Positions 4,874 through 53,025 of a stretch of 53,531 nucleotides of DNA are shown here, one piece after another. A program made the position numbers and the translations under genes. Origin of the DNA: a virus; the UHGV virus genome UHGV-0350075; one strand, written 5' to 3'. Every line of letters starts with the position of its first letter. The stretch's first letter is position 1. The notes beneath the pieces were generated by a model. It searched no databases, was not told where the DNA came from, and saw only the letters and a program-made list of their open reading frames with translations.

Positions 4874-5514
4874 TAACCCATCTCCCCGTTAAGCTCTGCT
4901 ACCCGGATGTCATAAACATCTTTTGCCTTGATTCGATGCTCCGATCCTTCCGGTAGTAATTTCCAGCATTTGCCAAATATTTCACGCAGCTTGTTAGCGT
5001 CCTGCGCTTTCGCTGCTGCATCACAGAAACGTGCTAATACTTCATCAGGATTTGGCGGCGCTTTATTCTGCTGCGGTTGTTGTTTTGGTGGGTTTTTCTG
5101 TTGTCGCGGCTGCTGGCCTGTCTGCTTCGCGTAAGCATCAGTATCAGGATCGCGAGCATCATCTATACAGAATAAACCGTTCAAAGCATATTTACGCGCG
5201 TAACTTGATGTTGCTCCTGTTAGCTGGCTGGCGTCCATACCCTTCTTGCTTTCTTCCTCCCTGGCATAAGCAGTTACCGCTATTACGTCTTCACCGTCGC
5301 TTAGCGTCGCCGTTGCTTTCACATAATAGCGATTGCCGATCAGGACAATTTCATCACTAACAGTCAGCGTGATATTTTGAAGCAGTGGTTTAACCGCCTC
5401 TAAAATATCCTCCGCCGACCTGTAATTATATCCACCAAAATTATTACGCTGATTTTTCGGCGCGTTCAGCGTTTGCTGAATCGTCCATAGCTTTTTATGT
5501 AACTCTGTTTTCAC
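4873..5514 (-). CDS. erf: ERF-family single-strand annealing protein
   Basis: 213 aa; N-terminal half matches P22 Erf as I recall it (LNAPKNQ, YRSAEDILEAVKPLL, GNRYYVKATAT, GATSSYARKYALNGLF). Confidence 0.8.
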   Translation of the reverse strand: MKTELHKKLWTIQQTLNAPKNQRNNFGGYNYRSAEDILEAVKPLLQNITLTVSDEIVLIGNRYYVKATATLSDGEDVIAVTAYAREEESKKGMDASQLTGATSSYARKYALNGLFCIDDARDPDTDAYAKQTGQQPRQQKNPPKQQPQQNKAPPNPDEVLARFCDAAAKAQDANKLREIFGKCWKLLPEGSEHRIKAKDVYDIRVAELNGEMG

Positions 5515-5663
5515 TATTTAATCTCCCGTGCTGTTAACACTATGTATAAGGCTTTATTCGCGGCGCTCCACATTTCGGCATCGTGAAGCATTTCCGCTAC
5601 TGCCAGTTTGAATTGAAGCGCCTGAATAACCATAATGTCATCTCCGGATGTTTACATTTTGTA

Positions 5664-5954
5664 TTAATGATAGCGGACTTTATCCAGGGGTTTTTCCCCT
5701 AAATGTCGTGGTTGCGTTGCGTGGTAGTAGCTGCCGCTTTCATTTTCCGTATACCATTTTACTGATCCTTTGCGACGTTCTTTAATGCTATTTGGTTTGC
5801 ATCTTTCCTCGTTTGCAAATCGAATAGCTTTATCCACATTGTCTGTTTTATTGATTGCAGGTGATGATTTTCTTTCGTTTTCTCTTTTTATCCTTCTGCG
5901 TTCCCTGGCATTCATTTTGCTATCACATTTACCATATATAATTGTAACGCTCAT
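5664..5954 (-). CDS. N-like transcription antiterminator (P22 gp24-like)
   Basis: 96 aa; arginine-rich motif NARERRRIKRENERK near N-terminus; first gene left of repressor. Confidence 0.5.
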   Translation of the reverse strand: MSVTIIYGKCDSKMNARERRRIKRENERKSSPAINKTDNVDKAIRFANEERCKPNSIKERRKGSVKWYTENESGSYYHATQPRHLGEKPLDKVRYH

Positions 5955-6010
5955 AATCTGATCTCCGTATATCCTTGATGATACTTAATAAAAAATCATC
6001 TTCGTTAATT

Positions 6011-6048
6011 GCCGCACTTCCAGCGGCTGACCAGATTGTTAATGAGCG
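6011..6048 (-). promoter_or_regulatory. candidate nutL (boxA CGCTCATTAA + boxB hairpin GCCGCTGGAAGTGCGGC)
   Basis: Read on reverse strand upstream of N-like gene; boxA-like decamer followed 11 nt later by 5-bp stem hairpin. Confidence 0.35.
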
Positions 6049-6422
6049 GCTTAACATCTTTCAACTAATCCCGCAATCATCGCCGTTCCCTGCGTGACCT
6101 TGCTCACTCCAAGCAAGCTGACTCGTCGCCTTGCGTGCGGTTTCGTGGGGGATGTAACGCTTTAAACACCCCATGCGCCTTGTTATCAGTGCCGCTTTCG
6201 GTCCCCAATCGGGGAGTTACTCCACGGTTGACAAGGTGTTAAGCCTGATTTTTAAAGTGCCAGGAAGTTGCTTTTGTTACCTGCGCCCTTCCTTTGACTC
6301 GCAATATACGCCCCGTAAAACATCGAGTCAATCCATTTTGTATACTTTTTTAAAATATTTTATATGTCATTGATATTTAAATAATAAATAACGTTTTCTG
6401 TTTACGTTTTGGTGTTTTCCAG

Positions 6423-6448
6423 GCAAAGAAAAGCCGCCATTCGGCGGC
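6423..6448 (-). terminator. intrinsic terminator downstream of repressor gene
   Basis: GCCGCC-attc-GGCGGC hairpin followed on reverse strand by TTTTCTTT, 7 nt after cI stop. Confidence 0.5.
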
Positions 6449-6454
6449 TAATGT

Positions 6455-7102
6455 TTATGGCAGGTTTACGATCTTCGCATCAACCACCACGCCTATAATT
6501 TTTGATTCTGGATTCATAGGGATTGGCGGATACAGCGGATTGAGCGAACGTAAAAGCCTTTGACCTCCATCAATAATCAACTGTTTAAACGTCGGTATCT
6601 GCCCTTCCTCAAGCTGGGCTATAACCAGTTTGCCGTCAATAGCTGGCGCGTGCGGGTCAACAAGTATCATCGTCCCCGCCGGGATGCTTAACCCCTGCGG
6701 CGCGTTCATTGATTCACCTTTGGCAACCAGCCAGTAACTATCATCTGAACAAATAACGCTAGTCGTAACGTGTGGTAATGCTGATCGCCTTGTGTCATCC
6801 ATATTGTTTACTGTGTCCTTCCAGTCAATAACCGGGTAACTACCTAAATCACGCGGCGGTGCGGCCTGAAGTGTATTAGAAACAGAATCATCAATGACCA
6901 TACCATCATGTGTAACAGTGAACTGACGACGCCCAAGCGCCCGCATAATCCGCGCAATATCTTCAAGATTTGGCTCGCGGCGACCGTTAAGCCAGTGTGA
7001 CAGGCCGCCTTTAGTTATCCCCATGAGATCTGCGAGTGAATCCTGACTCATGCCCTGCGCCCGCATGAGCTGCTTTGCTAAGTCATACCATTTTGTTTTC
7101 AT
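6455..7102 (-). CDS. cI: CI-type prophage repressor (HTH + LexA-like S24 peptidase domain)
   Basis: 215 aa; N-terminal HTH, C-terminal GESM...K autocleavage-type motifs; divergent from rightward operon. Confidence 0.85.
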   Translation of the reverse strand: MKTKWYDLAKQLMRAQGMSQDSLADLMGITKGGLSHWLNGRREPNLEDIARIMRALGRRQFTVTHDGMVIDDSVSNTLQAAPPRDLGSYPVIDWKDTVNNMDDTRRSALPHVTTSVICSDDSYWLVAKGESMNAPQGLSIPAGTMILVDPHAPAIDGKLVIAQLEEGQIPTFKQLIIDGGQRLLRSLNPLYPPIPMNPESKIIGVVVDAKIVNLP

Positions 7103-7187
7103 GTCGCTACCCTATAACCTCAAAAAGTTTGATGCAAGTCACAAAACGTGTATTTTAAGCCTTGATCTTAAAATTCCATTTTGTAAA

Positions 7188-7226
7188 CTTGCAGACAAGG
7201 TAAGGCCATACTTGCAAAGACGCAAG
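7188..7226. promoter_or_regulatory. candidate operator palindromes (CTTGcagaCAAG; CTTGCaaagacGCAAG)
   Basis: Two inverted repeats with CTTGC half-sites in the 306-bp region between repressor and first rightward gene. Confidence 0.3.
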
Positions 7227-7266
7227 GAAAAAGATAACGGAAGGCACAAAAAGGCACTTACCTTAA

Positions 7267-7298
7267 GCTCTTTAAAAATCCGGTGTCGCTGCGAAGCG
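7267..7298 (+). promoter_or_regulatory. candidate nutR (boxA GCTCTTTAA + hairpin CGCTgcgaAGCG)
   Basis: boxA-like motif then GNRA-loop hairpin on forward strand upstream of first rightward gene. Confidence 0.3.
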
Positions 7299-7408
7299 AA
7301 AAACAAATATCACGCAACGGCGGGATCTGTTGAGCGGTCAGTCACTGCTATCTAATGCTAATGGGATGCCCGCCCGCGCGTTCACTCTAACCATAGGAGA
7401 AAAACAAG

Positions 7409-7663
7409 ATGAGTATGCACATGATGAATGAAGCATGGAACGTAAAACTTAACAGCCCGATCCAAAAACTTGTCTTAATTGCGTTTGCAGAAAAGGCAGA
7501 CAATAAAGGCCGCGCACATGCTTCACGCGAAGAGATCGCAAAAGTGTGCGAACTGCCACTGCATACTACTGTTGACGCATTAAATTCATTGATCCGCAAA
7601 GGATTCATTAAACGCGCTGACGAATACGGCGACATTTATGACATTGCATTGCCGGAGGAATGA
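7409..7663 (+). CDS. winged-HTH DNA-binding protein (HTH_36-like); first gene of rightward early operon
   Basis: 84 aa; AGGAGA SD 8 nt upstream; pattern KLVLIAFAEKADNKG...EEIAKVCELPLHTTVDALNSLIRKGFI. Confidence 0.55.
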   Translation: MSMHMMNEAWNVKLNSPIQKLVLIAFAEKADNKGRAHASREEIAKVCELPLHTTVDALNSLIRKGFIKRADEYGDIYDIALPEE

Positions 7664-7666
7664 TCT

Positions 7667-8719
7667 ATGAAGTGGTTTAAGCATGATAGCGATGCGAACC
7701 GCGATGAAAAACTTCAAAACGTTTTATTAGATTATGGCCTGGAAGGGTACGGGCTTTATTGGTATTGCCTAGAACTAATAACTTATGACGTAGATCAGCA
7801 CAATCTAACTTTTGACCTACGACATGACGCAAGAATAATTGCGCGAAACGTCGGATCTACTGAAAAACGTATAGAAGAAATGATGAAATACTTCATCGAA
7901 ATTGGTTTGTTTGAATGTTCTCAAGGTCACATAACTTGTTTAAAGTTATTGAAAAGGCTGGACCAATCAATGACTTCTAAAAGCGCTTACAGGGCCGCCA
8001 TAAACACAGCGAAGGAGCAATTAAAATTAGAAAAGTTAATCAATCCAACACAAAAAGGTCATGATAGGGTCATGACCGGGTCAGGAAAGGGTCATGAATT
8101 AGAATTAGAAGTAGAAAAAGAAAGAGAAAAAGATATATACACTTCGTGTATTGTCGAAAATGAACAAAAAATGGTCAATCAGGATGGCGTAAACGAAGCG
8201 GCATTGCGTTGCCTTGCCTTCTACAACGACAAGGCAGGATGCAAATGTCGTGATGCTAAGCCATTCGTAGAACTACTGACAGAAACAAAAACACGTAAAG
8301 CGTATACGGAGGATGAGATCACATTAGTGATTGAGTGGGCTTTAACCCAATGGCGTAGCCGTGGTGGAGTACCTAAGCCTATCAACATTTGCCGGGTAAC
8401 TAAGTTTGATGGGTATTTGGCTGATGCTGAACAATGGCGCAAGCTATCAGCTACTGTAAACGCTGCCGACGTGGTGGAAGCATTTAACAGCACGTTTGAC
8501 GGCCTGTTACCACCTGCCGAACTGGATCGGGATCTTGAACGCAAGATCTATGCGTTCACTGACTACCTGAAAGACAAAAGCATTAACGGCTTTGTCGCCT
8601 ACTTCGAAACGTTCAAAAACACGGCTTCAGATTTTTACTTCGGCAATGGCTTCACTGCGACACTTGATTTTCTGCTTAAACCAAAAACGCTACGTGATAC
8701 GCGCGCTGGCGTTCTTTGA
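7667..8719 (+). CDS. replication initiation / replisome organizer protein (DUF4373-like N-terminus)
   Basis: 350 aa; N-terminus MKWFKHDSDANRDEKL...YGLEGYGLYWYCLELI matches phage replisome-organizer N-domain pattern; precedes helicase. Confidence 0.55.
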   Translation: MKWFKHDSDANRDEKLQNVLLDYGLEGYGLYWYCLELITYDVDQHNLTFDLRHDARIIARNVGSTEKRIEEMMKYFIEIGLFECSQGHITCLKLLKRLDQSMTSKSAYRAAINTAKEQLKLEKLINPTQKGHDRVMTGSGKGHELELEVEKEREKDIYTSCIVENEQKMVNQDGVNEAALRCLAFYNDKAGCKCRDAKPFVELLTETKTRKAYTEDEITLVIEWALTQWRSRGGVPKPINICRVTKFDGYLADAEQWRKLSATVNAADVVEAFNSTFDGLLPPAELDRDLERKIYAFTDYLKDKSINGFVAYFETFKNTASDFYFGNGFTATLDFLLKPKTLRDTRAGVL

Positions 8720-44633: not shown

Positions 44634-45112
44634 GTTTCACCCCATTCGCAAACGGCATATTCAACATCACGGCGGTTAATTAACCCTTGCCACTGTTTAC
44701 CACCAGCGTAGATCCAGCGTTTAAGCTGTGCGCACGCCTCTGATTTCTTGCCGTCATTGAGTAGTTTTAATAAGGTTGATGTTTTGAAATTGGTTGCGCC
44801 TACGTTATAGGCGAATGAATAAAGCGCCGCGCGGGTAAAATCTGATATTTCGACTTTAATATATGGGTCAATCGCTTTTGCGGTTTTGTGGAGATCTTTA
44901 CTTAACAAAGCATCGCATTCTGATTGCGTGTAAGTCTTACCTAACATAATGTCTTTTCCGGTATGACCATAACATACAGTCCATACACCGATAACATCAC
45001 GATAGGGATCGTACTCCACGCCCTCTAATGGTTTAACCATCACAGCCGCAATAGCGATCGCCCCACCAGCCGCCGCAGCAATAATCTTATTCTTCAGCGA
45101 TTGGCTAATCAT
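44621..45112 (-). CDS. SAR endolysin (lysozyme-like)
   Basis: Track lists 44621..45193 as '+', but only the reverse strand translates to this protein (checked by hand; TTG at 45193); ATG 45112 gives Gly/Ala-rich SAR segment then E-8aa-D-5aa-T catalytic triad. Confidence 0.8.
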
Positions 45113-45113
45113 G

Positions 45114-45314
45114 TTACTTATTCCCCATTCGCGCGTCGTGTTCCTCTTGCGCTCGCTTATTCTCCTGTGATTTGAAGTAATAATTGACGGCAAATGTGCC
45201 TACGGTTGATAAGATACCCACAAAGACGGCAATGTCATTGATGGTTATCGCGCCGAAAAAAGCAGTTACGGCCCCAGTCACATACGCGCACGCCTCCCGT
45301 ATTCTGTCGAACAT
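45114..45314 (-). CDS. class II holin (pinholin-like)
   Basis: 66 aa; two TM segments plus charged C-terminus; stop 1 nt before endolysin start. Confidence 0.75.
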
Positions 45315-45329
45315 AGATTTACCTCCAAC

Positions 45330-45357
45330 AAAGCAAAAACCCGGCGCGGTGCCGGGT
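45330..45357 (-). terminator. intrinsic terminator 20 nt upstream of holin (tR'-like, candidate Q target)
   Basis: CCCGGC-accgc-GCCGGG followed on reverse strand by TTTTTGCTTTGTT, then GGAGG SD and holin ATG. Confidence 0.55.
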
Positions 45358-45419
45358 AATTACAATTTCGCATTGTTAGGAAATATTTTAATCTATTTGT
45401 TTTTTATGCGCGATTATGG

Positions 45420-45617
45420 TTACAAATCACCAACCTTGCGCCAGTATCCGTGATTAACCATCGTGATAACTTCTTTCGCTGTCATAGGTAAAAATGGCTC
45501 ATGCCACCGATCAAGACTACCAAGACGCATCAAAACGTGCTCACCTTCGAGGCGGTAATAAGCTCGCGTAGCCAATGACTGATAAACGCCATCATATTCA
45601 TGGTCGCTATTTCCCAT
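45420..45617 (-). CDS. hypothetical protein
   Basis: Track ORF 65 aa. Confidence 0.4.
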   Translation of the reverse strand: MGNSDHEYDGVYQSLATRAYYRLEGEHVLMRLGSLDRWHEPFLPMTAKEVITMVNHGYWRKVGDL

Positions 45618-45873
45618 TTTTACGCTCCTTAATGGCTCGCCTGATTTGCTCTGCCGTAGCGTCGAAGAAAGCGATAAACACAGTCACAGGCCAAAAAGGA
45701 ATCTCAAGTCCACCAGGTTCAGCACCGCTAAACTTAATAAAACATGACATCAGGATCGCGCCAGCGATATAAAGCAAAACAGTCACAGCAATAAGGCATT
45801 CAATCATCTTCACCCCCAAGATCGTGATAAATATCGTTAGGGTCTTCTCCATGTTCCTCGCAAAAACGCTCAA
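45607..45873 (-). CDS. small membrane protein
   Basis: Track ORF 88 aa; two hydrophobic segments; true start may be internal (MIECL...). Confidence 0.45.
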   Translation of the reverse strand: MSVFARNMEKTLTIFITILGVKMIECLIAVTVLLYIAGAILMSCFIKFSGAEPGGLEIPFWPVTVFIAFFDATAEQIRRAIKERKNGK

Positions 45874-45931
45874 ATAGCGCCCAATTTTCAGAAAGAAACA
45901 TGATTAATAAATTTTTATACCACTCTTCCAT

Positions 45932-46180
45932 TTAATCATCCTCATCGTCTTCATGTTCAGCCAGGAACTCATCAACTACGCGGTAAGTAACTGGCGGGAT
46001 GTATTCGAAATCATCAGAATCAAGATCAAGCGTCCTGCTGTCGCCATCGTCATCAATCGTATTCATCCCTAACTCACCGAAAGGGCCGTACCCAATGTGG
46101 CCCAGGTATTCGCTTCCAGTAGTAAAGCCAGGATATTCACCTTTACAACGTATTTTGTAAGGTCTATTTGATGCGCTCAA
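45932..46180 (-). CDS. hypothetical acidic protein
   Basis: Track ORF 82 aa; DDEDD C-terminus. Confidence 0.45.
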   Translation of the reverse strand: MSASNRPYKIRCKGEYPGFTTGSEYLGHIGYGPFGELGMNTIDDDGDSRTLDLDSDDFEYIPPVTYRVVDEFLAEHEDDEDD

Positions 46181-46487
46181 TTTTAATTCCCCCTTCTTCT
46201 CCTTCAGTCATTTTATATTCTGCCACTAGTTCAGCTCCAACCAATCCCACATCAGCATTAGCTATGCCAGGGAACTCCAGATAGGCAAAAATAAGGCTTT
46301 TAATTCTATTCAGGTCTTCAAGATGGTCTGCATTAAAAGGCGGTTCAGATACGTGAAAGCATTTAACGTGCGCATCGTCTTCAGTAGCTACACGGAAACA
46401 TACGCCACGTTCACCTGCGAATGGTCCAATTTCTTTATCTTCTGGAAAATTGCCACGAAAAACCTTAACGCTGATAAATTTAGACAT
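46164..46487 (-). CDS. hypothetical protein
   Basis: Track ORF 107 aa. Confidence 0.5.
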   Translation of the reverse strand: MSKFISVKVFRGNFPEDKEIGPFAGERGVCFRVATEDDAHVKCFHVSEPPFNADHLEDLNRIKSLIFAYLEFPGIANADVGLVGAELVAEYKMTEGEEGGIKIERIK

Positions 46488-46510
46488 TTATTATTCCCCT
46501 TCGTAATAAA

Positions 46511-46840
46511 TTAAAACTCCGCACCAGGTAAGCTACGCGCTTTATTTACCGCATCGTGCTTTAACGATAAACCAGCGTAATAATTCATAATCCCCATATT
46601 ACCTACTGGTATTTCATCATTTTCTGCCTTTATTCTTAACAACTGGTTTTTAGTGAAGATCCTGTCTCCATCAGTGATATATAACCAGTCGCCGCGCTTA
46701 CCAACAACAACATGAGATCTGCCTAAACTGTCTTTAAATTCATAATTGCAGAAAACATCATCGTTAGGGACTTCAACAAAACAGCACGCAATAAATTTAG
46801 CGCTTTTCATAATTACACCCTTCTGATTTGATGGGGCCAT
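46511..46840 (-). CDS. hypothetical protein
   Basis: Track ORF 109 aa. Confidence 0.5.
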   Translation of the reverse strand: MAPSNQKGVIMKSAKFIACCFVEVPNDDVFCNYEFKDSLGRSHVVVGKRGDWLYITDGDRIFTKNQLLRIKAENDEIPVGNMGIMNYYAGLSLKHDAVNKARSLPGAEF

Positions 46841-46853
46841 CCGGCCCCGTGTT

Positions 46854-46994
46854 TTATTCTTCTTCGTCTCCCTTGAATCCTAAACACTCCGCGTATTCGT
46901 CAATGCTTAATGCTTCTTCACCTGGTGCCAGCAATTCAAAGTAGCGGGCATATAACTCAAAAACCCATGCCGGATATTTAGCGTTAGCGCTCAT
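46854..46994 (-). CDS. hypothetical acidic protein (46 aa)
   Basis: Own translation MSANAKYPAWVFELYARYFELLAPGEE...; GGAGGGGAGG SD; first ORF after regulatory gap. Confidence 0.35.
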   Translation of the reverse strand: MSANAKYPAWVFELYARYFELLAPGEEALSIDEYAECLGFKGDEEE

Positions 46995-47073
46995 CTTCTT
47001 GCCTCCCCTCCGCCTTTCCGTGGCTTATATATAACAAAATGGCACTGTCGAAACAATGCCATTTCGTATACAT

Positions 47074-47089
47074 TGTGATACAGATCACA
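47074..47089. promoter_or_regulatory. CRP-like palindrome TGTGATACAGATCACA
   Basis: Perfect TGTGA-N6-TCACA in 114-bp gap 46995..47108; flanked by ACAAAATGGCA and TGCCATTT. Confidence 0.45.
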
Positions 47090-47108
47090 TTTATGGTTGT
47101 CCAACGCC

Positions 47109-47315
47109 TCACCACTTAACAAAACGCGCGATCGGTTCCGTACCAAACTGACTGGTAACGTGTCCACGCGCGTAGCAATCCCAATAGCGCCACGCGTCGC
47201 CGTGGTCGTCTTTAATGTATTGGGTGTTAAGTTTATCACCAGTCAGGTGATCTACGGTATATATTCCGCCAACCTCAAAGCATGATGATTTTGATTCAGT
47301 GCATCTGACGAACAT
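47109..47315 (-). CDS. hypothetical protein
   Basis: Track ORF 68 aa. Confidence 0.45.
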   Translation of the reverse strand: MFVRCTESKSSCFEVGGIYTVDHLTGDKLNTQYIKDDHGDAWRYWDCYARGHVTSQFGTEPIARFVKW

Positions 47316-47566
47316 TAGAAAACCCCTTTATAATCGACCGTGTATTTTGCTATCAGTTTCCAGTCGCAATAATTTTCCATGTCGCGCGGTTGCCAGCCTT
47401 TCATGCCTACCGCACTTCGCGCAGCGTGACGGCGATAATCGTCATTAAGATCGGCAATACACCACGGTTGAAGGAAGAACATATAATTCGCTTCGTTAAC
47501 CAGAATAGCCATCATCCGTCCAGTGGCCTTATCTTTCGCCCTGAAATAACTTACCTTGATTTTCAT
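47315..47566 (-). CDS. hypothetical protein
   Basis: Track ORF 83 aa. Confidence 0.45.
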   Translation of the reverse strand: MKIKVSYFRAKDKATGRMMAILVNEANYMFFLQPWCIADLNDDYRRHAARSAVGMKGWQPRDMENYCDWKLIAKYTVDYKGVF

Positions 47567-47777
47567 TTTTAATTACCTCGATCAGCATTTCTTCTTCCAG
47601 GTTAGCCGGACGTTTACGGAATATCCCGGCAAAAACCAGATCATCGAGTAGGTCTTTACGCTTAAATAACCACTCCTTCATTATCACCCCGTCGTCACTG
47701 CGATATACGACGCCGTTTTTCAAAAAATAAAAAGTGTGGGTATTTGTCTGAAGGTATAGATCTTCGTAAACGTCCAT
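47529..47777 (-). CDS. hypothetical protein
   Basis: Track ORF 82 aa. Confidence 0.45.
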   Translation of the reverse strand: MDVYEDLYLQTNTHTFYFLKNGVVYRSDDGVIMKEWLFKRKDLLDDLVFAGIFRKRPANLEEEMLIEVIKNENQGKLFQGER

Positions 47778-47781
47778 GATA

Positions 47782-48009
47782 TTAACCCTCGACTACTTGC
47801 AGCCCGCGCCCCTTGTCGCCCACGAAGTCGCCCAGGCTGAACGTATACGACCACGCCGGATTGATATAATTATCATCAGCACCGTGAGCAATAAGGTCTT
47901 TACCCAAAATGACGCAGGTCACATCATCAGAGTGAACAACGCCTACCGTTTCCCCTACTACGCGTTTTAATGACGGGTATCCGTGATCGTGTAAGAATTT
48001 AACTTTCAT
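47782..48009 (-). CDS. hypothetical protein
   Basis: Track ORF 75 aa. Confidence 0.45.
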   Translation of the reverse strand: MKVKFLHDHGYPSLKRVVGETVGVVHSDDVTCVILGKDLIAHGADDNYINPAWSYTFSLGDFVGDKGRGLQVVEG

Positions 48010-48284
48010 TCCTCTGTCTCCCAGCGGTCTATGCTGATTAAAAAGTCACGGATAGCGTGTCGCTCGTCGCGCGTCGGCTTGCGCTTCCGGTAAATCCTGA
48101 AATCGAACCATGCTTTTTCCTGCTCAAAATCCAGGTCGTAAGCAAGTGCCTCAATGTATCCGCATTCGTGATACTGGTACGCCACGCCAGCACGAACAAA
48201 AAAGCGGGTTTTATCCCGCTTGTGTTCATAGATACGCATATCCACCTCGTTAAGCAGTTGTGTAGCTATCCACCAGCTTTTCAT
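48006..48284 (-). CDS. hypothetical protein
   Basis: Track ORF 92 aa. Confidence 0.45.
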   Translation of the reverse strand: MKSWWIATQLLNEVDMRIYEHKRDKTRFFVRAGVAYQYHECGYIEALAYDLDFEQEKAWFDFRIYRKRKPTRDERHAIRDFLISIDRWETEE

Positions 48285-48480
48285 CTTTCATTCTGGCAAG
48301 CTGTGCGATGTTCATCGTGTAGCCGCCATCAGCGAAAAGCAATTCCGCCGCCGCGCGACGAAAAGCAATATCATCATGGTTACGTGTCCATGTAGCGATC
48401 ACAACGCGTTTCCCGTTAGTGGCGAACATAGACAATTCATTATCAACAACGTCGATAGCCTGCCAGATTTTTAATTCCAT
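48250..48480 (-). CDS. hypothetical protein
   Basis: Track ORF 76 aa. Confidence 0.45.
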   Translation of the reverse strand: MELKIWQAIDVVDNELSMFATNGKRVVIATWTRNHDDIAFRRAAAELLFADGGYTMNIAQLARMKDEKLVDSYTTA

Positions 48481-48836
48481 GATTTATCCCCGTAGATCTT
48501 GAATAGTTCGCGCTCTTCCTGGTCTTCAACTATCCCTATATGCAGATCACGCAGGCGGCGCATTGTGCGGAATCGTGGCCTGAACTCCTGACTGCGTTTA
48601 ATGTATTTGCCGCCAATTGAATAAATATGACCGTATGAGTACCATCTATTGCCTACCCATATTTCATATTCTTTGCCTTCGTAATTGAATTTTATCGTTA
48701 GCTCGCAGACTTCAACTATTAACCCTTTATCAATAATGTCATTGAGCATTTCGTCCCATTCTTTGAGGAATGGTTGTTGATAAAAACCAAAAAGCGTATT
48801 TACAGCGTGGCAAAGGTAATCAATGATTATTTGCAT
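48471..48836 (-). CDS. hypothetical protein
   Basis: Track ORF 121 aa. Confidence 0.5.
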   Translation of the reverse strand: MQIIIDYLCHAVNTLFGFYQQPFLKEWDEMLNDIIDKGLIVEVCELTIKFNYEGKEYEIWVGNRWYSYGHIYSIGGKYIKRSQEFRPRFRTMRRLRDLHIGIVEDQEERELFKIYGDKSWN

Positions 48837-48840
48837 ATTG

Positions 48841-49047
48841 TCACCACATCATATAGTAAACGTTATCATATGCTAATTCGTCTGCGTCTCTTTGACAGTC
48901 GATTGTTGCATCATCTTCGTGCCATTCTTTAGCAAATAAACGCGCCCATTTACGACGCTCACGTTTATTGTGCCGCAGGTCACTAAAAACCATTAAAGCC
49001 TTGTCGTAAGCTCTTACCATGCGTTTCATTCTACTTTTCATCTTCAC
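48841..49047 (-). CDS. hypothetical basic protein
   Basis: Track ORF 68 aa. Confidence 0.45.
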   Translation of the reverse strand: MKMKSRMKRMVRAYDKALMVFSDLRHNKRERRKWARLFAKEWHEDDATIDCQRDADELAYDNVYYMMW

Positions 49048-49246
49048 CCTTCCTTAATTCCTTAATTTCAATATTGCGTAACCGGACGTCGCACGGCGTT
49101 TCAGATTTACCAGTAAGCGCCAGCGCCAGGTTTTCAGGTGTCGTGCAAAGGATTATCTCTTTACCTGTGCTAAATTTAATTTCTATGCGGATCTCGTTTT
49201 CGTCACCGCACAATACACGGTTAATTGACAGGCCAGCTTTTTTCAT
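49031..49246 (-). CDS. hypothetical protein
   Basis: Track ORF 71 aa. Confidence 0.45.
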   Translation of the reverse strand: MKKAGLSINRVLCGDENEIRIEIKFSTGKEIILCTTPENLALALTGKSETPCDVRLRNIEIKELRKGEDEK

Positions 49247-49587
49247 TGCTCACCCCACCTTAACATCCAATTCACATCACATTTAATTGCGAATACCTTC
49301 ACCGGATCAGGACCGAATAATGGATGTGTGATAGTTTTAACTTCATAGCCAAAATAAGGAAGGTTAATAATCCTGTGTTTTTCGTGGTTGGCAGGATATC
49401 CCCATTTAATAATCAGGCGTTCATATTCCCGCCCTTCCAGACGTTTACGCCAATAGTCATTATAAAGCCGGTATTCCTCCACCTTCTTTCCAGTCCATAT
49501 GGCGTGGAAATATTCCCCTTTCAGATTCAAATGCAGGTCTTTACTTGCCATCGCTATGATCCTGTAAACAGTCGTTATAGCCTTCAA
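49243..49587 (-). CDS. ASCH/DUF3850-like domain protein
   Basis: 114 aa; pattern HLNLKGEYFHAIWTGKKVEEYRLYNDYW resembles ASCH-like fold proteins; true start may be MASKDL. Confidence 0.45.
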   Translation of the reverse strand: MKAITTVYRIIAMASKDLHLNLKGEYFHAIWTGKKVEEYRLYNDYWRKRLEGREYERLIIKWGYPANHEKHRIINLPYFGYEVKTITHPLFGPDPVKVFAIKCDVNWMLRWGEQ

Positions 49588-49819
49588 TGTATCCGGTTAA
49601 TCCGGTGTTACTCACTGACCATTCAGCAGAACGGCGCTTGATGGCTTCGTCCATCGTCATAACATCGACCGGATCTCTTAAGCCTATATATTTCCGCAAT
49701 TCCGTAATTATCACCGCCCTTAATTGTTGTGTATTTGAGTACGCCCTAGCCTTATCAGTTATTCCGTTTACAAGATTCCTAAATTCATGTTCTTTTAATT
49801 TAGGTTTCATCATCGTCAC
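49541..49819 (-). CDS. hypothetical protein
   Basis: Track ORF 92 aa. Confidence 0.45.
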   Translation of the reverse strand: MTMMKPKLKEHEFRNLVNGITDKARAYSNTQQLRAVIITELRKYIGLRDPVDVMTMDEAIKRRSAEWSVSNTGLTGYIEGYNDCLQDHSDGK

Positions 49820-50000
49820 CCCGTTTGTAAATTTTGACTGGCTTAATTGGGATGGCTGGTAATTCTCCTTCGTTTAACGCGCTCGCCATACCCAATATTA
49901 AGCGTGCTTCAGTACCAGTGACTTTCTTACACCATGCGCCGCCTGTTTTATCTTGAAATAAGATAACAGCAAACTGATCGTTTATTTCCAGCTTACCCAT
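49800..50000 (-). CDS. hypothetical protein
   Basis: Track ORF 66 aa directly downstream of Q. Confidence 0.45.
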   Translation of the reverse strand: MGKLEINDQFAVILFQDKTGGAWCKKVTGTEARLILGMASALNEGELPAIPIKPVKIYKRGDDDET

Positions 50001-50722
50001 TATTCACCCCGTGTCACTCGTTTAATCTCACTTTCCGCGCGGGCCTCTTCTTTGAATAGCTCCGCTATGGCGTCTTCATAGAAAACCCGGTATTTCTTCC
50101 ACCATGTTGATCTGCTTACCGGAAAAACAAGCTGATTAACCGCCTGCCGGACAAGATCTACAGGGAAACGTGAGTACCCGCGCCCGCCGCAATGCTGGCA
50201 CGTTTTAAACACTGGCATTTCCGCCGCTTCGCTGGCTGCTTTATCCGGTATTTCGCCGCGCCCCTTGCATTGTTTACAATGATTGCGAACCTTTCCATGC
50301 CCCTTGCATTTTTTGCAAAGGTGTTTTTCTCCGTAGTCGTCAAACGTAAATTTATATCCGCCGCACTCCATACAAGTTTTTTCCGTCGCGGCGCTTTGGC
50401 AATAATCCCGAAACGCGAAAACGGCAACAAGAATAATGAGATCATTGCGTTGTGCCTCGTTCAGTTCCATGACGTATTCATAATCTTTTGCCATAGCTCT
50501 TAAACGCTCTGTAAGCAAAACTACGGCCCTGTGTTTTTCGGCTTGTGATAGTTCCATCTTTCCCAAAAAAGCGCTATATCCAAGCTCTACGCGCGATTGC
50601 GCCATACCCGCAGCGGTTAGCGCATCCGTCGTATTAAGAGCGTCCGGGGACGTGCCCCGGCTTTCGTCAGATAATCGCGGTGATTTAGGAAAGTGGAATT
50701 TTAGAATGGATTCTAAATTCAT
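50000..50722 (-). CDS. Q: late-gene antiterminator Q (lambda Q-like)
   Basis: 240 aa; N-terminus MNLESILKFHFPKSPRLSD...AAGMAQS matches lambda Q as recalled; Cys-rich zinc-binding region. Confidence 0.8.
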   Translation of the reverse strand: MNLESILKFHFPKSPRLSDESRGTSPDALNTTDALTAAGMAQSRVELGYSAFLGKMELSQAEKHRAVVLLTERLRAMAKDYEYVMELNEAQRNDLIILVAVFAFRDYCQSAATEKTCMECGGYKFTFDDYGEKHLCKKCKGHGKVRNHCKQCKGRGEIPDKAASEAAEMPVFKTCQHCGGRGYSRFPVDLVRQAVNQLVFPVSRSTWWKKYRVFYEDAIAELFKEEARAESEIKRVTRGE

Positions 50723-50904
50723 TATTTGCCCTCATAACGTGCCGCCAGCCGTTTACGATCAGAAATGGATTGCACCAGCTTTCTTTCGAACTCTTTCAGC
50801 GCAAGTAATTCGCGCATGTGGAAAGCCTGGATTTGTCGGACCGTCTCTAAATCACGCTCGTCGCGCTGAATATCTATTTGCAGATCTTTAACTTCGTTTT
50901 TCAT
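50722..50904 (-). CDS. hypothetical coiled-coil protein
   Basis: Track ORF 60 aa between rusA and Q. Confidence 0.45.
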   Translation of the reverse strand: MKNEVKDLQIDIQRDERDLETVRQIQAFHMRELLALKEFERKLVQSISDRKRLAARYEGK

Positions 50905-51308
50905 TGCTCACCCCACATATTAGTCGCGTATTCGTCAATATCCGGTAGTAGGTCGCCGCGTTCGCGGATCTTAATAAACAAGCGTCCGCCTTTTACCTTC
51001 CGGCAGCGAACAATTTTTATTGAGTCGATTTGCCCGTCATCCTTCCAGAATCCGGCATAAGTAAGGCTGTCAAAAAGGCATTTAGGGATATTATCCAGAT
51101 CTCTGATCCGGTTATCCGGCGGCGCGGCGTAAATGGCAATTGCCAGTCGGCAAGGTAGGTTAATATTTAAATTTAATAGCTCGATGATGTCTCTTACTTG
51201 TTCCCTGTATTCCTTCCCCACTTTGCTGATATAGTGAAAACCGCGCGAATGTCGGTAATAGCGATTATTCGATGGCGGGTAAGGCAGGCTAAAAGAATAT
51301 TCATTCAT
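50901..51308 (-). CDS. rusA: Holliday junction resolvase RusA
   Basis: 135 aa; close to E. coli RusA as recalled (PPSNNRYYRH, RDLDN, FDSLTYAGFWKDD, KGGRL). Confidence 0.85.
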   Translation of the reverse strand: MNEYSFSLPYPPSNNRYYRHSRGFHYISKVGKEYREQVRDIIELLNLNINLPCRLAIAIYAAPPDNRIRDLDNIPKCLFDSLTYAGFWKDDGQIDSIKIVRCRKVKGGRLFIKIRERGDLLPDIDEYATNMWGEQ

Positions 51309-51910
51309 GCTGCCTTTCTCCTTAAGGCGTCCAATTTAGCCTGATAGATGTTTATTAGCTCCTTACATTCTGCAATCGTCCATTTATGCGTATCATTGTT
51401 GTTCTCCAGAGCTACCACCCTGGCGAGGCCAATTTTTCGAATCAGCGCCGGGCGATACCCTCCGATGTTGCCGTCTAGTGTCTGGTTGCAGTGCCTACAT
51501 TGCTTATGGCAATTATCCTCGTTGAAGCGAAGGTGTCCGGCGGCGGCTACCGTCCTGTAATGACCTGCATCCCACCCGCATTGCTCACCGTAGTAAGTCC
51601 CGCAAGATATACACGGCAAGCGCGCGTCACGTTCGCGAATATAGGCGTTAAATACATTTTGAACTTGTTTGATCCAATAACTACGCGGATTTAACTGTTT
51701 ACGCTTCCGGTTGCGTTCTTCCCTCTGGCTATCACGGCGTTTCTTCCGCTCCATAGCCTTCATAGCCTTCTCACGGTCGCGGCATAGCTGGTCAAACTTC
51801 AGTTCTTCCAGACATTCATCGCTGCACCACGTTTGATTGTGATATTTAGGCTCAAAAAAAACGCCGCAGCATTTGCAACGGCGTCTTATGGGTTTTTTAG
51901 GGTTTTGCAT
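51305..51910 (-). CDS. ninG: NinG/Rap recombination protein
   Basis: Track ORF (GTG 52000) trimmed to ATG 51910; RRRCK..C, PRSYWIKQ, LPCISCGT, WDAGHYRT, LRFNE, HKQC as in lambda NinG. Confidence 0.8.
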   Translation of the reverse strand: MQNPKKPIRRRCKCCGVFFEPKYHNQTWCSDECLEELKFDQLCRDREKAMKAMERKKRRDSQREERNRKRKQLNPRSYWIKQVQNVFNAYIRERDARLPCISCGTYYGEQCGWDAGHYRTVAAAGHLRFNEDNCHKQCRHCNQTLDGNIGGYRPALIRKIGLARVVALENNNDTHKWTIAECKELINIYQAKLDALRRKAA

Positions 51911-51924
51911 AAAAACCACCCCGA

Positions 51925-52101
51925 TTATTTTTGATTCTCTGTTTCGTTCAGCCTTTCGGCGTGTCCGGCCCTTAGCCAATGTTCTAAGCATTCGTTGCAC
52001 TCGTTACAGCCTCCTTTCTTCGTGCTGCATACATTGCACATTGCACGCATAACGCTTTCTCGTTCATAGTCGTCATGCCATTGGTAATTATCAAAAGGCA
52101 T
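51925..52101 (-). CDS. NinF-like small zinc-ribbon protein (58 aa)
   Basis: Own translation MPFDNYQWHDDYERESVMRAMCNVCSTKKGGCNECNEC...; 15 nt upstream of ninG, same size and position as lambda NinF. Confidence 0.4.
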   Translation of the reverse strand: MPFDNYQWHDDYERESVMRAMCNVCSTKKGGCNECNECLEHWLRAGHAERLNETENQK

Positions 52102-52222
52102 AATGCTCTCTCCTTTTCAGGTGATTTCTACGCATTTCAGCGCTGCCGGATTTTTAAAGAGCATTTTGTTTGCTTGAAGTATACAAAATGGATACGTGCT
52201 AACAAGGTGTAAAGCGCCATTA

Positions 52223-52238
52223 TGTGACATTCATCACA
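52223..52238. promoter_or_regulatory. CRP-like palindrome TGTGACATTCATCACA
   Basis: Perfect TGTGA-N6-TCACA in 159-bp gap 52102..52260; flanked by GTATACAAAATGG and GCCATTTTGTAAAC. Confidence 0.45.
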
Positions 52239-52260
52239 CAATGACGCCATTTTGTAAACT

Positions 52261-53025
52261 TCAGTCCGGCAAAACGCGGTTGAGCGTAGTACGATTGATG
52301 GCCCGGTCGTTAGCCAGGAATACAGCACGGGCGAAGCCACGCGGCGTTAGTGAGCGGATCATCTTTGTTCGCTTTGATTTTCCGCCTAACTTCGCGTGCT
52401 GCTTACTATCTTCCCATTCATCTGGCATCGGCACAGGACGGAATAGAGGCTGCTTAAATCCATTCCCGCACCAAATACAAGTTTTCTTCGTGTAGGCGTC
52501 GCGGTCGGCAATGTATTCCGGGAAAGCGGGATGCTTATCATCTTCCGGCAGGTAGCCACCGTAAGCGCACGGATTGAAGATGAAATCCGGTTTACGCCAT
52601 AACGTTGACAATGCGCCTACCGGATTTTCCACCATCCACGGGACGTTATACATACTCGCCAGCGTTTCTACTAACTTTGCGTTATACGCTGCCTTCTGCT
52701 GAAAGTAAGGATCTTTCTTCCGCTTATCAGCGAACCAACGAGCGCCGGACACAGCAAGATCATCACACGGAGGAAATCCCAGGATAATGTCAGGATCTGG
52801 ATATACAGACAATTCAGGGGAGAACATTACCAGAAAATGGCTATCAATCCAGACGTTAACATATTCAATATTTGGATGAATTATTTTTACCCCGTCATAA
52901 TCACCGTGATTAGCGCCGTCATAGTTGAAGCAATAACATTTATAACCAGCGTCCGCCCAATCTTTAACAGCGTACCCGCTGCCGTCATACAGCGACCACA
53001 CCACCCAATTTCTAAGCCCGCTCAT
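52261..53025 (-). CDS. putative methyltransferase-like protein (degenerate cytosine-C5 MTase-like motifs)
   Basis: 254 aa; motif I-like WSLYDGSGYA, motif IV-like GFPPCDD (PC dipeptide), motif VI-like ENPVG; no sizeable target-recognition domain. Confidence 0.35.
   Translation of the reverse strand: MSGLRNWVVWSLYDGSGYAVKDWADAGYKCYCFNYDGANHGDYDGVKIIHPNIEYVNVWIDSHFLVMFSPELSVYPDPDIILGFPPCDDLAVSGARWFADKRKKDPYFQQKAAYNAKLVETLASMYNVPWMVENPVGALSTLWRKPDFIFNPCAYGGYLPEDDKHPAFPEYIADRDAYTKKTCIWCGNGFKQPLFRPVPMPDEWEDSKQHAKLGGKSKRTKMIRSLTPRGFARAVFLANDRAINRTTLNRVLPD

Follow-up and report, generated by a model that had tools for sequence, protein, structure and literature searches.

Twelve small genes between the antiterminator gene Q and the lysis genes of an mEpimmI-like coliphage: a fixed five-gene core among exchangeable genes

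Introduction

The viral genome UHGV-0350075, a stretch of 53 531 nucleotides (nt) referred to below as the window, carries at positions 47109–50000 of its minus strand a block of twelve small open reading frames (ORFs; o1–o12) that begins where the gene for the late antiterminator Q ends. A first-pass annotation made from the sequence alone had described the block as lying between Q and a late regulatory gap, likened it to the nin-like accessory regions of lambdoid phages and, from that likeness, supposed that it houses anti-restriction and anti-defence factors. The question raised by this locus is what kind of gene block follows Q in this phage and whether any of its products can be given a function.

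We find that the block is a composite of a fixed five-gene core (o7–o11) and exchangeable genes (o1–o6 and o12). Our preferred reading, which we hold to be probable but well short of assured, is that it forms the tail of a delayed-early operon that contains Q and in which both core and flexible genes are expressed during lytic growth by antitermination. In a nucleotide search, the region was closest to Escherichia phage MagusPhagus (91% identity over 80% coverage), followed by mEp554, mEp044, mEp010, mEp013, mEp021 and mEp515 at 86–90% identity, so that the best published genome reaches at most about 91% identity over 80% of the length. By sequence, the phage is assigned to the mEpimmI (mEp021-like) group of temperate coliphages. 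The phages of this group have been described as Nus-dependent, non-lambdoid, temperate coliphages that are common in human faeces, with a reported frequency equal to that of lambdoid phages (PMC11893012). The lambdoid context assumed in the first-pass annotation is contradicted by this classification.

Architecture and coding status of the block

Positions 47109–50000 are filled exactly by twelve consecutive minus-strand ORFs in the ORF list. Four of the starts (o2, o3, o5 and o8) were moved downstream on the basis of PHROG alignment ranges, homologue lengths and ribosome-binding sites, giving proteins of 66–121 amino acids (aa). The genes are listed below in the order of transcription, with the ratio of nonsynonymous to synonymous substitution rates (Ka/Ks) where it was obtained; raw-list extents are added for the four genes with revised starts and are unchanged for the other eight.

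49800–50000, minus strand: o1, 66 aa; PHROG 35000 (E = 1e-37); Ka/Ks 0.05–0.24; flexible
49541–49810, minus strand: o2, 89 aa from ATG 49810 (raw list 49541–49819, GTG 49819); PHROG 29262 (E = 3e-50), aligned from residue 4; Ka/Ks 0.19–0.33; flexible
49243–49551, minus strand: o3, 102 aa from ATG 49551 (raw list 49243–49587, TTG 49587); predicted ASCH/PUA-like fold; PHROG 625, unknown function; flexible
49031–49246, minus strand: o4, 71 aa; PHROG 1222 (E = 9e-30); the most sporadic gene of the block
48841–49041, minus strand: o5, 66 aa from ATG 49041 (raw list 48841–49047, GTG 49047); PHROG 8758 (E = 4e-24); near-core
48471–48836, minus strand: o6, 121 aa; PHROG 16975 (E = 2e-59); Ka/Ks about 0.1; near-core
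48250–48480, minus strand: o7, 76 aa; PHROG 38280 (E = 4e-51); Ka/Ks 0.05–0.31; core
48006–48239, minus strand: o8, 77 aa from ATG 48239 (raw list 48006–48284, 92 aa from 48284); PHROG 30442, residues 16–92 of the raw-list version aligned to positions 1–77 of 77; Ka/Ks 0.03–0.15; core
47782–48009, minus strand: o9, 75 aa; PHROG 5009 (E = 2e-30); Ka/Ks 0.08–0.17; core
47529–47777, minus strand: o10, 82 aa, acidic; orthologue of mEp021 gp41; no PHROG match; core
47315–47566, minus strand: o11, 83 aa, basic, isoelectric point (pI) 9.4; PHROG 38609 (E = 1e-59); Ka/Ks 0.08–0.14; core
47109–47315, minus strand: o12, 68 aa; PHROG 31142 (E = 1e-42); flexible

With the revised starts, the successive junctions from Q/o1 onward measure −1, −11, −11, −4, −11, +4, −10, +10, −4, +4, −38 and −1 nt (negative values are overlaps), the ATG of o1 sharing one nucleotide with the last base of the Q stop codon. 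Every ORF with a homologue in the six related GenBank phages (11 of the 12) gave Ka/Ks values of 0.03–0.33 at Ks values of up to about 1, which is saturation, and PHROG families were matched by all ORFs except o10, with E values of 1e-24 to 1e-60. The best-matching families are all labelled as being of unknown function. Chance ORFs or non-coding DNA are ruled out by the Ka/Ks values and the PHROG matches, and we take the twelve to be genuine protein-coding genes under purifying selection. The same analyses and the ORF list bear out the initial description of twelve small, packed and uncharacterised ORFs with overlapping stops and starts, and it did not come about that all twelve proved to be known housekeeping phage proteins, the finding that had been named as contradicting that description. 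Known RNA genes are likewise excluded: Rfam gave no match in 44800–52400 at E values of up to 1, and there are no tRNAs in the window.

Family searches returned little. None of the twelve proteins has a significant match in Pfam or NCBIfam, and a PADLOC search with o1–o10 gave a single, non-significant match at E = 0.037; no toxin–antitoxin or defence family was recognised in these searches. Neither membrane segments nor lipoproteins are predicted among the twelve. Searches of Protein Data Bank (PDB) sequences with o1, o2, o4, o5, o6, o7, o8, o11 and o12 found nothing below E = 0.1 except for o8 (see below). The run of small ORFs continues beyond 47109, where a 114 nt gap is followed by seven further ORFs (o13–o19), making nineteen ORFs down to position 45420; there are no paralogues among these nineteen.

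A fixed core and exchangeable genes

The relatives compared were six GenBank mEpimmI phages and 47 IMG/VR loci retrieved through o10, and gene presence was counted in 50 genomes that contain both Q and the holin gene. The counts divide the block in two. Genes o7, o8, o9, o10 and o11 are found in all 50 genomes, and the remainder are present in decreasing numbers: o6 in 49, o5 in 46, o1 in 45, o2 in 43, o3 in 37, o12 in 23 (as two very divergent allele groups) and o4 in 17. Over the same 50 genomes, the distance from Q to the holin gene spans 2.0–6.8 kb. In mEp021, the counterpart of o7 (mEp021_38) abuts Q directly and o1–o6 are missing; compared with that phage, the window has six extra genes between Q and o7. 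The block is thus a composite of a fixed five-gene core, o7–o11, and the exchangeable genes o1–o6 and o12. The term accessory region, as used in the first-pass annotation, suits o1–o6 and o12, which are flexible, and does not suit o7–o11.

The flexible genes appear to have been gained, lost or replaced gene by gene. A remnant of o3 amounting to 15 residues is retained in genomes that lack the gene, which fits such insertion and deletion of single genes. The sequences upstream of o1 (49998–50020, at the end of Q: CACGGGGTGAATAATGG) and of o7 (48478–48500, at the end of o6: TACGGGGATAAATCATGG) are similar to each other. These alike junctions resemble short boundary sequences that permit module exchange, and their likeness would explain the insertion of o1–o6 between Q and o7 relative to mEp021.

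The core is restricted to the mEpimmI group. In searches of 50 697 phage records, o8 and o11 were each present in seven mEpimmI records only; all 52 database homologues of o10 come from E. coli, and an exhaustive search of 1.84 billion proteins returned homologues of o9 in only 10 representative clusters. Group specificity is not confined to the core, since o2 was found in only five mEpimmI records of the 50 697.

Core genes o7–o11

The core proteins are 86–97% identical to gp38–gp42 of mEp021, with matching gene order and position between Q and the holin gene, and are 82–99% identical across the six relatives. The published mEpimmI genomes (mEp021, mEp010, mEp013, mEp044, mEp515, mEp554 and MagusPhagus; PMC11893012) have the same block after Q, with orthologous and collinear o7–o11, and every gene in it is annotated as hypothetical except that for gp41.

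The acidic protein o10 is 95% identical to mEp021_41, which is annotated as a 'virion structural protein'. Mass spectrometry of mEp021 virions purified on CsCl revealed this protein, gp41, which is present in all 48 genomes analysed in the same study and was proposed to be similar to RegA (PMC11893012). An AlphaFold2 (AF2) model of o10 was obtained with medium confidence [predicted local distance difference test (pLDDT) 77.5], and its comparison with the PDB gave no meaningful match; a RegA-like fold is rejected, as no RegA appears among the 50 PDB matches listed (best E = 0.44). The model resembles many uncharacterised proteins of 55–90 aa from unrelated phages in BFVD [E = 0.01–0.1, template-modelling (TM) score 0.5–0.6], suggesting that o10 has a common small-phage-protein fold. 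In many relatives the protein is only 71 aa long and ends in ...MLIDEVLK, with an aligned one-residue indel just before the point of divergence. The last 11 residues of o10, which lie in the overlap with the start of o11 (38 nt, 47529–47566), look dispensable.

For o8, a weak sequence match to the second subdomain of the UHRF1 tandem Tudor domain (E = 0.005, among ten PDB searches) is a lead only, and the protein may adopt an SH3- or Tudor-like barrel. Among the matches of o9, those spread over several stretches of very long proteins look like compositional or repeat noise. The likeliest role of the core genes would be in a step of lytic development or virion maturation that is specific to the group.

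The ASCH-like protein o3

The only fold call that had been made for the block, an ASCH/DUF3850-like fold for the third ORF, is upheld by a sequence motif, an AF2 model and Foldseek matches. Of the 215 homologues of o3, several are named ASCH, DUF3850 or RNA-binding by NCBI, and relatives at the DNA level occur in P1-like, Stx and HK022 phages. The match of o3 to the Pfam ASCH family (PF04266) scores 14 bits (E = 0.088), below the gathering cut-off of 21.2, and a profile search of PDB sequences gave only PH0355 at E = 0.77. Among the 38 sequences of the homologue alignment, 24 have weak ASCH matches (best E = 0.0045) and five have weak matches to DUF3850 (PF12961).

The AF2 model of o3, computed from the same 38-sequence alignment, has a pLDDT of 87.7 and shows a PUA-like β-barrel with a helix between strands 1 and 2 (strand 5–10, helix 12–19, strand 25–29 and onward). 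When the model was compared with the PDB by Foldseek, the top 16 matches were all of the ASCH type, with E values of 0.07–0.6, TM scores of 0.37–0.51 and probabilities of 0.51–0.92; they include PH0355, ZmASCH from Zymomonas, 3iuw, PF0470, PF0455, 1wk2 and YqfB, at sequence identities of 10–18%. The motif GxKxxExR, a signature of ASCH proteins at the α1–β2 junction (PMC6803910), reads G21-K-K23-V-E-E26-Y-R28 in o3. Lys23, Glu26 and Arg28 are invariant in the 38 homologues, and the motif is located at the expected helix–strand junction of the model.

Based on the homologue names, the motif, the fold model and the Foldseek matches, we place o3 in the ASCH superfamily as a divergent member. It has the β-barrel, helix α1 and motif in common with this superfamily, which includes the Z. 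mobilis ASCH ribonuclease, the E. coli N4-acetylcytidine amidohydrolase YqfB, human EOLA1 and PH0355; unlike these members, it falls below the Pfam thresholds for both ASCH and DUF3850, and its TM scores and identities to them are low. The assignment points to binding or processing of RNA or of a modified nucleotide as a possible role. A literature search found no characterised phage ASCH protein and no anti-defence role. Profile searches and structure prediction, which the first-pass annotation had recommended for every gene, thus confirmed the fold in the case of o3 and led to a model without a telling PDB match in that of o10.

Other flexible genes

The remaining flexible genes differ in how widely they are distributed. 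The most sporadic, o4, has no homologue in any of the six GenBank relatives, but was found by tblastn in 228 phage records, including Stx phages and virulent Dhillonvirus, where it is annotated as hypothetical throughout. The near-core protein o5 is basic (pI about 9) and matches only the C-terminal half of the 151-position PHROG 8758 profile. In an alignment of 30 unique homologues, it has a nearly invariant basic helix, NKRxRRKWAR, and a C-terminus reading DNVYYMMW, and is otherwise variable; the basic stretch suggests nucleic acid binding and nothing more specific. The o12 protein is either 91–96% or 35–48% identical across the relatives.

All 47 homologues of o6 are hypothetical proteins. 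A weak secondary PHROG match of o6, to a 'membrane protein' family, is to the sole annotated family matched by the block. Homologues that are 42–47% identical to o6 occur in the early operon of Salmonella P2-like prophages, beside DNA methyltransferase genes. In loci L008–L010 (positions 5072–7861), the o6 homologues lie upstream of a Phage_GPA replication gene and adjoin a Dam-type MethyltransfD12 gene; in one Salmonella P2-like locus, the homologue is flanked on its other side by a cytosine methyltransferase gene.

Gene neighbourhood and the nin-like interpretation

The genes that frame the block were identified by Pfam and BLASTP searches and by comparison with annotated relatives, and the main ones are as follows.

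51305–52000, minus strand: NinG (Pfam PF05766, E = 1e-66), upstream of Q
50901–51308, minus strand: RusA (Pfam PF05866), upstream of Q
50000–50722, minus strand: Q, lambda-type late antiterminator, 240 aa; upstream boundary of the block
45114–45314, minus strand: holin, 66 aa; downstream boundary, followed by endolysin and Rz genes

On the minus strand, the order is NinG, RusA, a 60 aa ORF, Q, the twelve-ORF block, o13–o19, holin, lysozyme and Rz. A small NinF-like ORF, whose mEp021 counterpart is annotated as 'putative NinF', is likewise upstream of Q. Q matches the Pfam Antiterm family (PF03589, E = 5e-29) and PHROG 127, and BLASTP gives a full-length match to lambda Q at 34% identity (E = 2e-45). 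The holin shares 94–100% identity with those annotated in the six GenBank relatives, and the two genes after it match Phage_lysozyme (PF00959) and Rz (PF03245). The layout NinG–RusA–Q–small ORFs–lysis genes is annotated likewise in seven published mEpimmI phages.

This order bears directly on the first explanation offered for the block, namely that all of it is a nin-like accessory island with anti-restriction or anti-defence products. The lambda nin region (ninA–ninI, between P and Q) likewise consists of small, packed and partly dispensable delayed-early genes that depend on antitermination and are mosaic in content. The present block, however, comes after Q and before the lysis genes, and the nin-type genes of the window, NinG and RusA, are upstream of Q; no homologue of ninA–ninI was found in the block, for none of whose twelve proteins there is a Pfam or NCBIfam family. 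The nin-like label is not sustained.

An anti-defence content could still be argued for without that label. Small, packed, early-looking genes of uncharacterised role are the usual home of such factors, and seven of the twelve genes vary between genomes. Both o3 and o4 occur in unrelated phages, the homologues of o6 in P2-like prophages are neighbours of DNA methyltransferase genes, and o10/gp41 is virion-associated, as are the packaged anti-restriction proteins T4 IPI* and P1 Dar. Counter-defence genes would be expected to turn over, however, and the opposite is seen in five genes, which are present in 50 of 50 genomes and specific to the group. Neither PADLOC (o1–o10) nor Pfam nor NCBIfam produced a significant match; the PHROG families are uncharacterised, save for the weak 'membrane protein' match of o6. 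We consider a nin-like island of this kind distinctly unlikely. The supposed anti-defence content was a prior rather than a result, and our own rough priors, which have no result behind them either, are that a counter-defence factor among the flexible genes, at least one, is possible though on balance doubtful, and that an anti-defence island comprising the block as a whole is scarcely credible.

For the flexible genes, the preferred reading of the block as the tail of a Q-containing operon would make them host-interaction genes and a plausible place for host-takeover or counter-defence factors. Because all twelve proteins are small and soluble, they would probably bind host or phage macromolecules rather than act as enzymes, with o3 as the exception.

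Terminators and transcription

Three elements on the minus strand are relevant to how the block might be expressed.

48192–48221, minus strand: intrinsic-terminator-like hairpin and T-run in the 5′ part of o8 (AAGCGGGATAAAACCCGCTT TTTTGTTCGT), found by terminator scan
46995–47108, minus strand: gap 1, 114 nt, the 'late regulatory gap' of the first-pass annotation; accessory module
45315–45419, minus strand: gap 2, non-coding, just upstream of the holin gene; candidate late regulatory region

The hairpin within o8 is annotated as terminator T9 in mEp554. Among 44 distinct sequences, none of the nine third codon positions within the hairpin varies, whereas 41 of 69 do so elsewhere in o8 (Fisher p = 0.0007). 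One relative has a compensatory change from GCGGG/CCCGC to GCGCG/CGCGC. The invariant third positions and the compensatory double substitution indicate that the hairpin structure itself is maintained by selection.

Neither the window nor any of the six GenBank relatives has intergenic DNA behind Q. What precedes o7 is Q in mEp021 but o6 in the other genomes, so that a conserved promoter region belonging to o7–o11 is lacking. On the simplest reading of these two observations, the genes o1–o12 are most likely coupled in translation and transcribed together with Q, starting at the early rightward promoter, at the far end of a rightward delayed-early operon. The twelve are the leading two thirds of a run of nineteen genes that ends at the lysis cassette. 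As conserved terminators punctuate this run, inside o8, in gap 1 and before the holin gene, it would be expressed only under processive antitermination during lytic growth.

An alternative is that the block, or the part of it from o8 onward, is a Q-dependent late operon, with a late promoter inside the upstream coding DNA and the o8 terminator in the role of tR′. In lambda, the distance from pR′ to tR′ is roughly 190 nt, and the o8 terminator lies about 240 nt downstream of the start of o7, which is near that value. Q is of the lambda type, there is no intergenic room after it for a conventional pR′, and o10/gp41 has been found in virions, all of which would suit late transcription. The promoter that this arrangement calls for was not encountered. 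The sole promoter-like site in o7 (CTGGCA, 16 nt, GATAAT; 48439–48466) reads GATAAC or GACAAT in many relatives, so that the critical final T of its −10 element is lost, and is rejected for that reason. The 3′ end of Q, also considered as the site of a late promoter, has no excess synonymous conservation, and promoter-like sites in the region are no more common than in shuffled sequence (15 versus 16.6 expected). We regard a late operon of this type as unlikely.

A further comparison is with the interval from Q to S in Stx and other lambdoid phages, which also holds a variable gene set between Q and the holin gene; here, the corresponding interval varies over the 2.0–6.8 kb given above. In Stx phages, the late promoter and the Q-utilisation site are intergenic and directly follow Q, so that the inserted genes are late. 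The window differs from them in lacking intergenic DNA after Q and in having a fixed five-gene core in the interval.

Gap 1 contains a TGTGA-N6-TCACA palindrome (47074–47089), a hairpin with a T-run (47034–47067; −19.6 kcal/mol, z = −6.7) and a promoter-like arrangement of TTGTTT (47051–47056), a 17 nt spacer and TG-n-TATATA (47028–47033). Terminators are annotated in it in mEp554, mEp044 and mEp010. It occurs only alongside o13 (32 of the 50 genomes) and was absent from mEp021 and mEp013 when these were searched directly, so that a universal late regulatory region is ruled out; it looks like a moron-type terminator plus promoter.

This raises the possibility that some genes of the block are themselves morons, that is, lysogenic-conversion, superinfection-exclusion or toxin–antitoxin genes expressed from the prophage. 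Gap 1, with its terminator and its own promoter-like element, adjoins the block, and ipe, another small gene of the mEpimmI group, alters the host phenotype in lysogens. Within 47109–50000 there is, however, neither intergenic DNA nor a conserved promoter, a layout of the required kind being presented only by gap 1 with o13; ipe, which is mEp021_29, precedes the Dam methyltransferase gene and is not part of the block; and the twelve include neither matches to toxin–antitoxin or defence families nor any membrane protein or lipoprotein. No ORF with the published ipe start-codon pattern was found in the window. We judge the moron explanation to be very unlikely.

The only non-coding region conserved in all relatives, in alignments of 7 and of 50 genomes, is gap 2. 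It contains a GC-rich terminator (45339–45357), detected by both scan and fold and present as TERM_5 in the mEp021 record, and an invariant motif, GATTAAAAT-N7-AACAATGCGAAA, which resembles the lambda pR′ −10 element and σ70 pause element (TAAATT-N6-AACGAT); two different versions of the sequence upstream exist among the relatives. The motif is the best candidate for a late regulatory region, and only that. The late regulatory gap had been placed at the end of the twelve genes, but gap 1 is tied to o13, the conserved non-coding region is gap 2 and the gene run reaches 45420, so that the block does not end where it was supposed to.

Several observations weigh against the reading of the block as part of a delayed-early operon with Q. 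The late promoter pR′ was located neither in o7 nor in the 3′ end of Q, so that early transcription together with Q remains inferred, and the 50-genome alignment shows no conserved −35 element at the gap 2 motif. The strong, conserved terminator in o8 could mark a boundary between transcription units. A virion protein such as o10/gp41 would be expected to be made late; its virion association comes from one study, the mass spectrometry of which also detected Ssb in the virions (PMC11893012), and it may reflect carry-over. Finally, family, PHROG and PDB searches gave ten of the twelve proteins no functional assignment.

A more elaborate proposal joins several of these elements. The core o7–o11 would be a dedicated mEpimmI module in which o10/gp41 is possibly packaged and ejected with the DNA, protecting or conditioning the incoming genome, the o8 terminator would gate expression to antiterminated lytic transcription, and one or more of the flexible genes would encode a new counter-defence protein. 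T4 IPI* and P1 DarA/DarB provide the analogy for o10/gp41, which is also small, encoded outside the structural cluster and found in virions; it has no sequence or fold similarity to them in the searches run. We put this forward as a speculation that is improbable as a whole.

Implications

The block as such was already known: seven published phages and several dozen prophages and viral contigs contain it, with its genes annotated as hypothetical. It is a routine case of uncharacterised phage genes, and no long-standing question is made newly testable by it. The contribution is a narrowing. Five invariant, group-specific genes emerge as candidates for an essential or group-defining step, and the seven exchangeable genes as the only reasonable place in which to look for counter-defence functions. 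To this are added the ASCH-like fold of o3, the link between o10 and a virion protein and a set of conserved terminators, one of them within a gene. Conserved, uncharacterised mEpimmI genes are reasonable targets because the group is reported to match lambdoid phages in frequency in human faeces (PMC11893012).

Genes and sites beyond the block

The run between gap 1 and gap 2 continues the block to the lysis cassette.

45420–46994, minus strand: o13–o19, seven small ORFs, present in 19–46 of the 50 genomes

These ORFs belong to PHROG families of unknown function, apart from o14, which matches none, and no Pfam match was found for any of them. Three are very acidic: o13 (46 aa, net charge −8.5; 46854–46994) and, within 45800–46180, o16 (82 aa, −15) and o17 (43 aa, −11). 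Such a composition is typical of DNA-mimic anti-restriction proteins. The product of o18 (45607–45807) is a small membrane protein.

Exact palindromes of the type TGTGA-N6-TCACA, the consensus for CRP, occur three times in the window (at 2267–2282 and two other places), against 0.06 expected. At 47028–47089, in gap 1, and at 52178–52238, both on the minus strand, they form part of a common layout of palindrome, 17 nt, TTGTT(T/A), 10 nt and ATTTTGT(T)ATA. This layout resembles a promoter with a −35 and an extended −10 element, the palindrome being centred about 60–61 nt upstream of the predicted start, a spacing that corresponds to the geometry of class I CRP-activated promoters. Among the relatives, 47 of 54 sequences have at least one such palindrome–promoter site, and the spacing is 33 nt in 59 of 60 sites; the half-sites are kept and the 6 nt centre varies. 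The copy at 52178–52238 precedes the NinF-like ORF, NinG, RusA and Q, and expression of Q might be coupled to cyclic AMP–CRP through this putative site. Within Q itself, third codon positions at 50405–50432 are almost invariant (0.99) among 46 distinct sequences, compared with 0.67–0.9 elsewhere in the gene.

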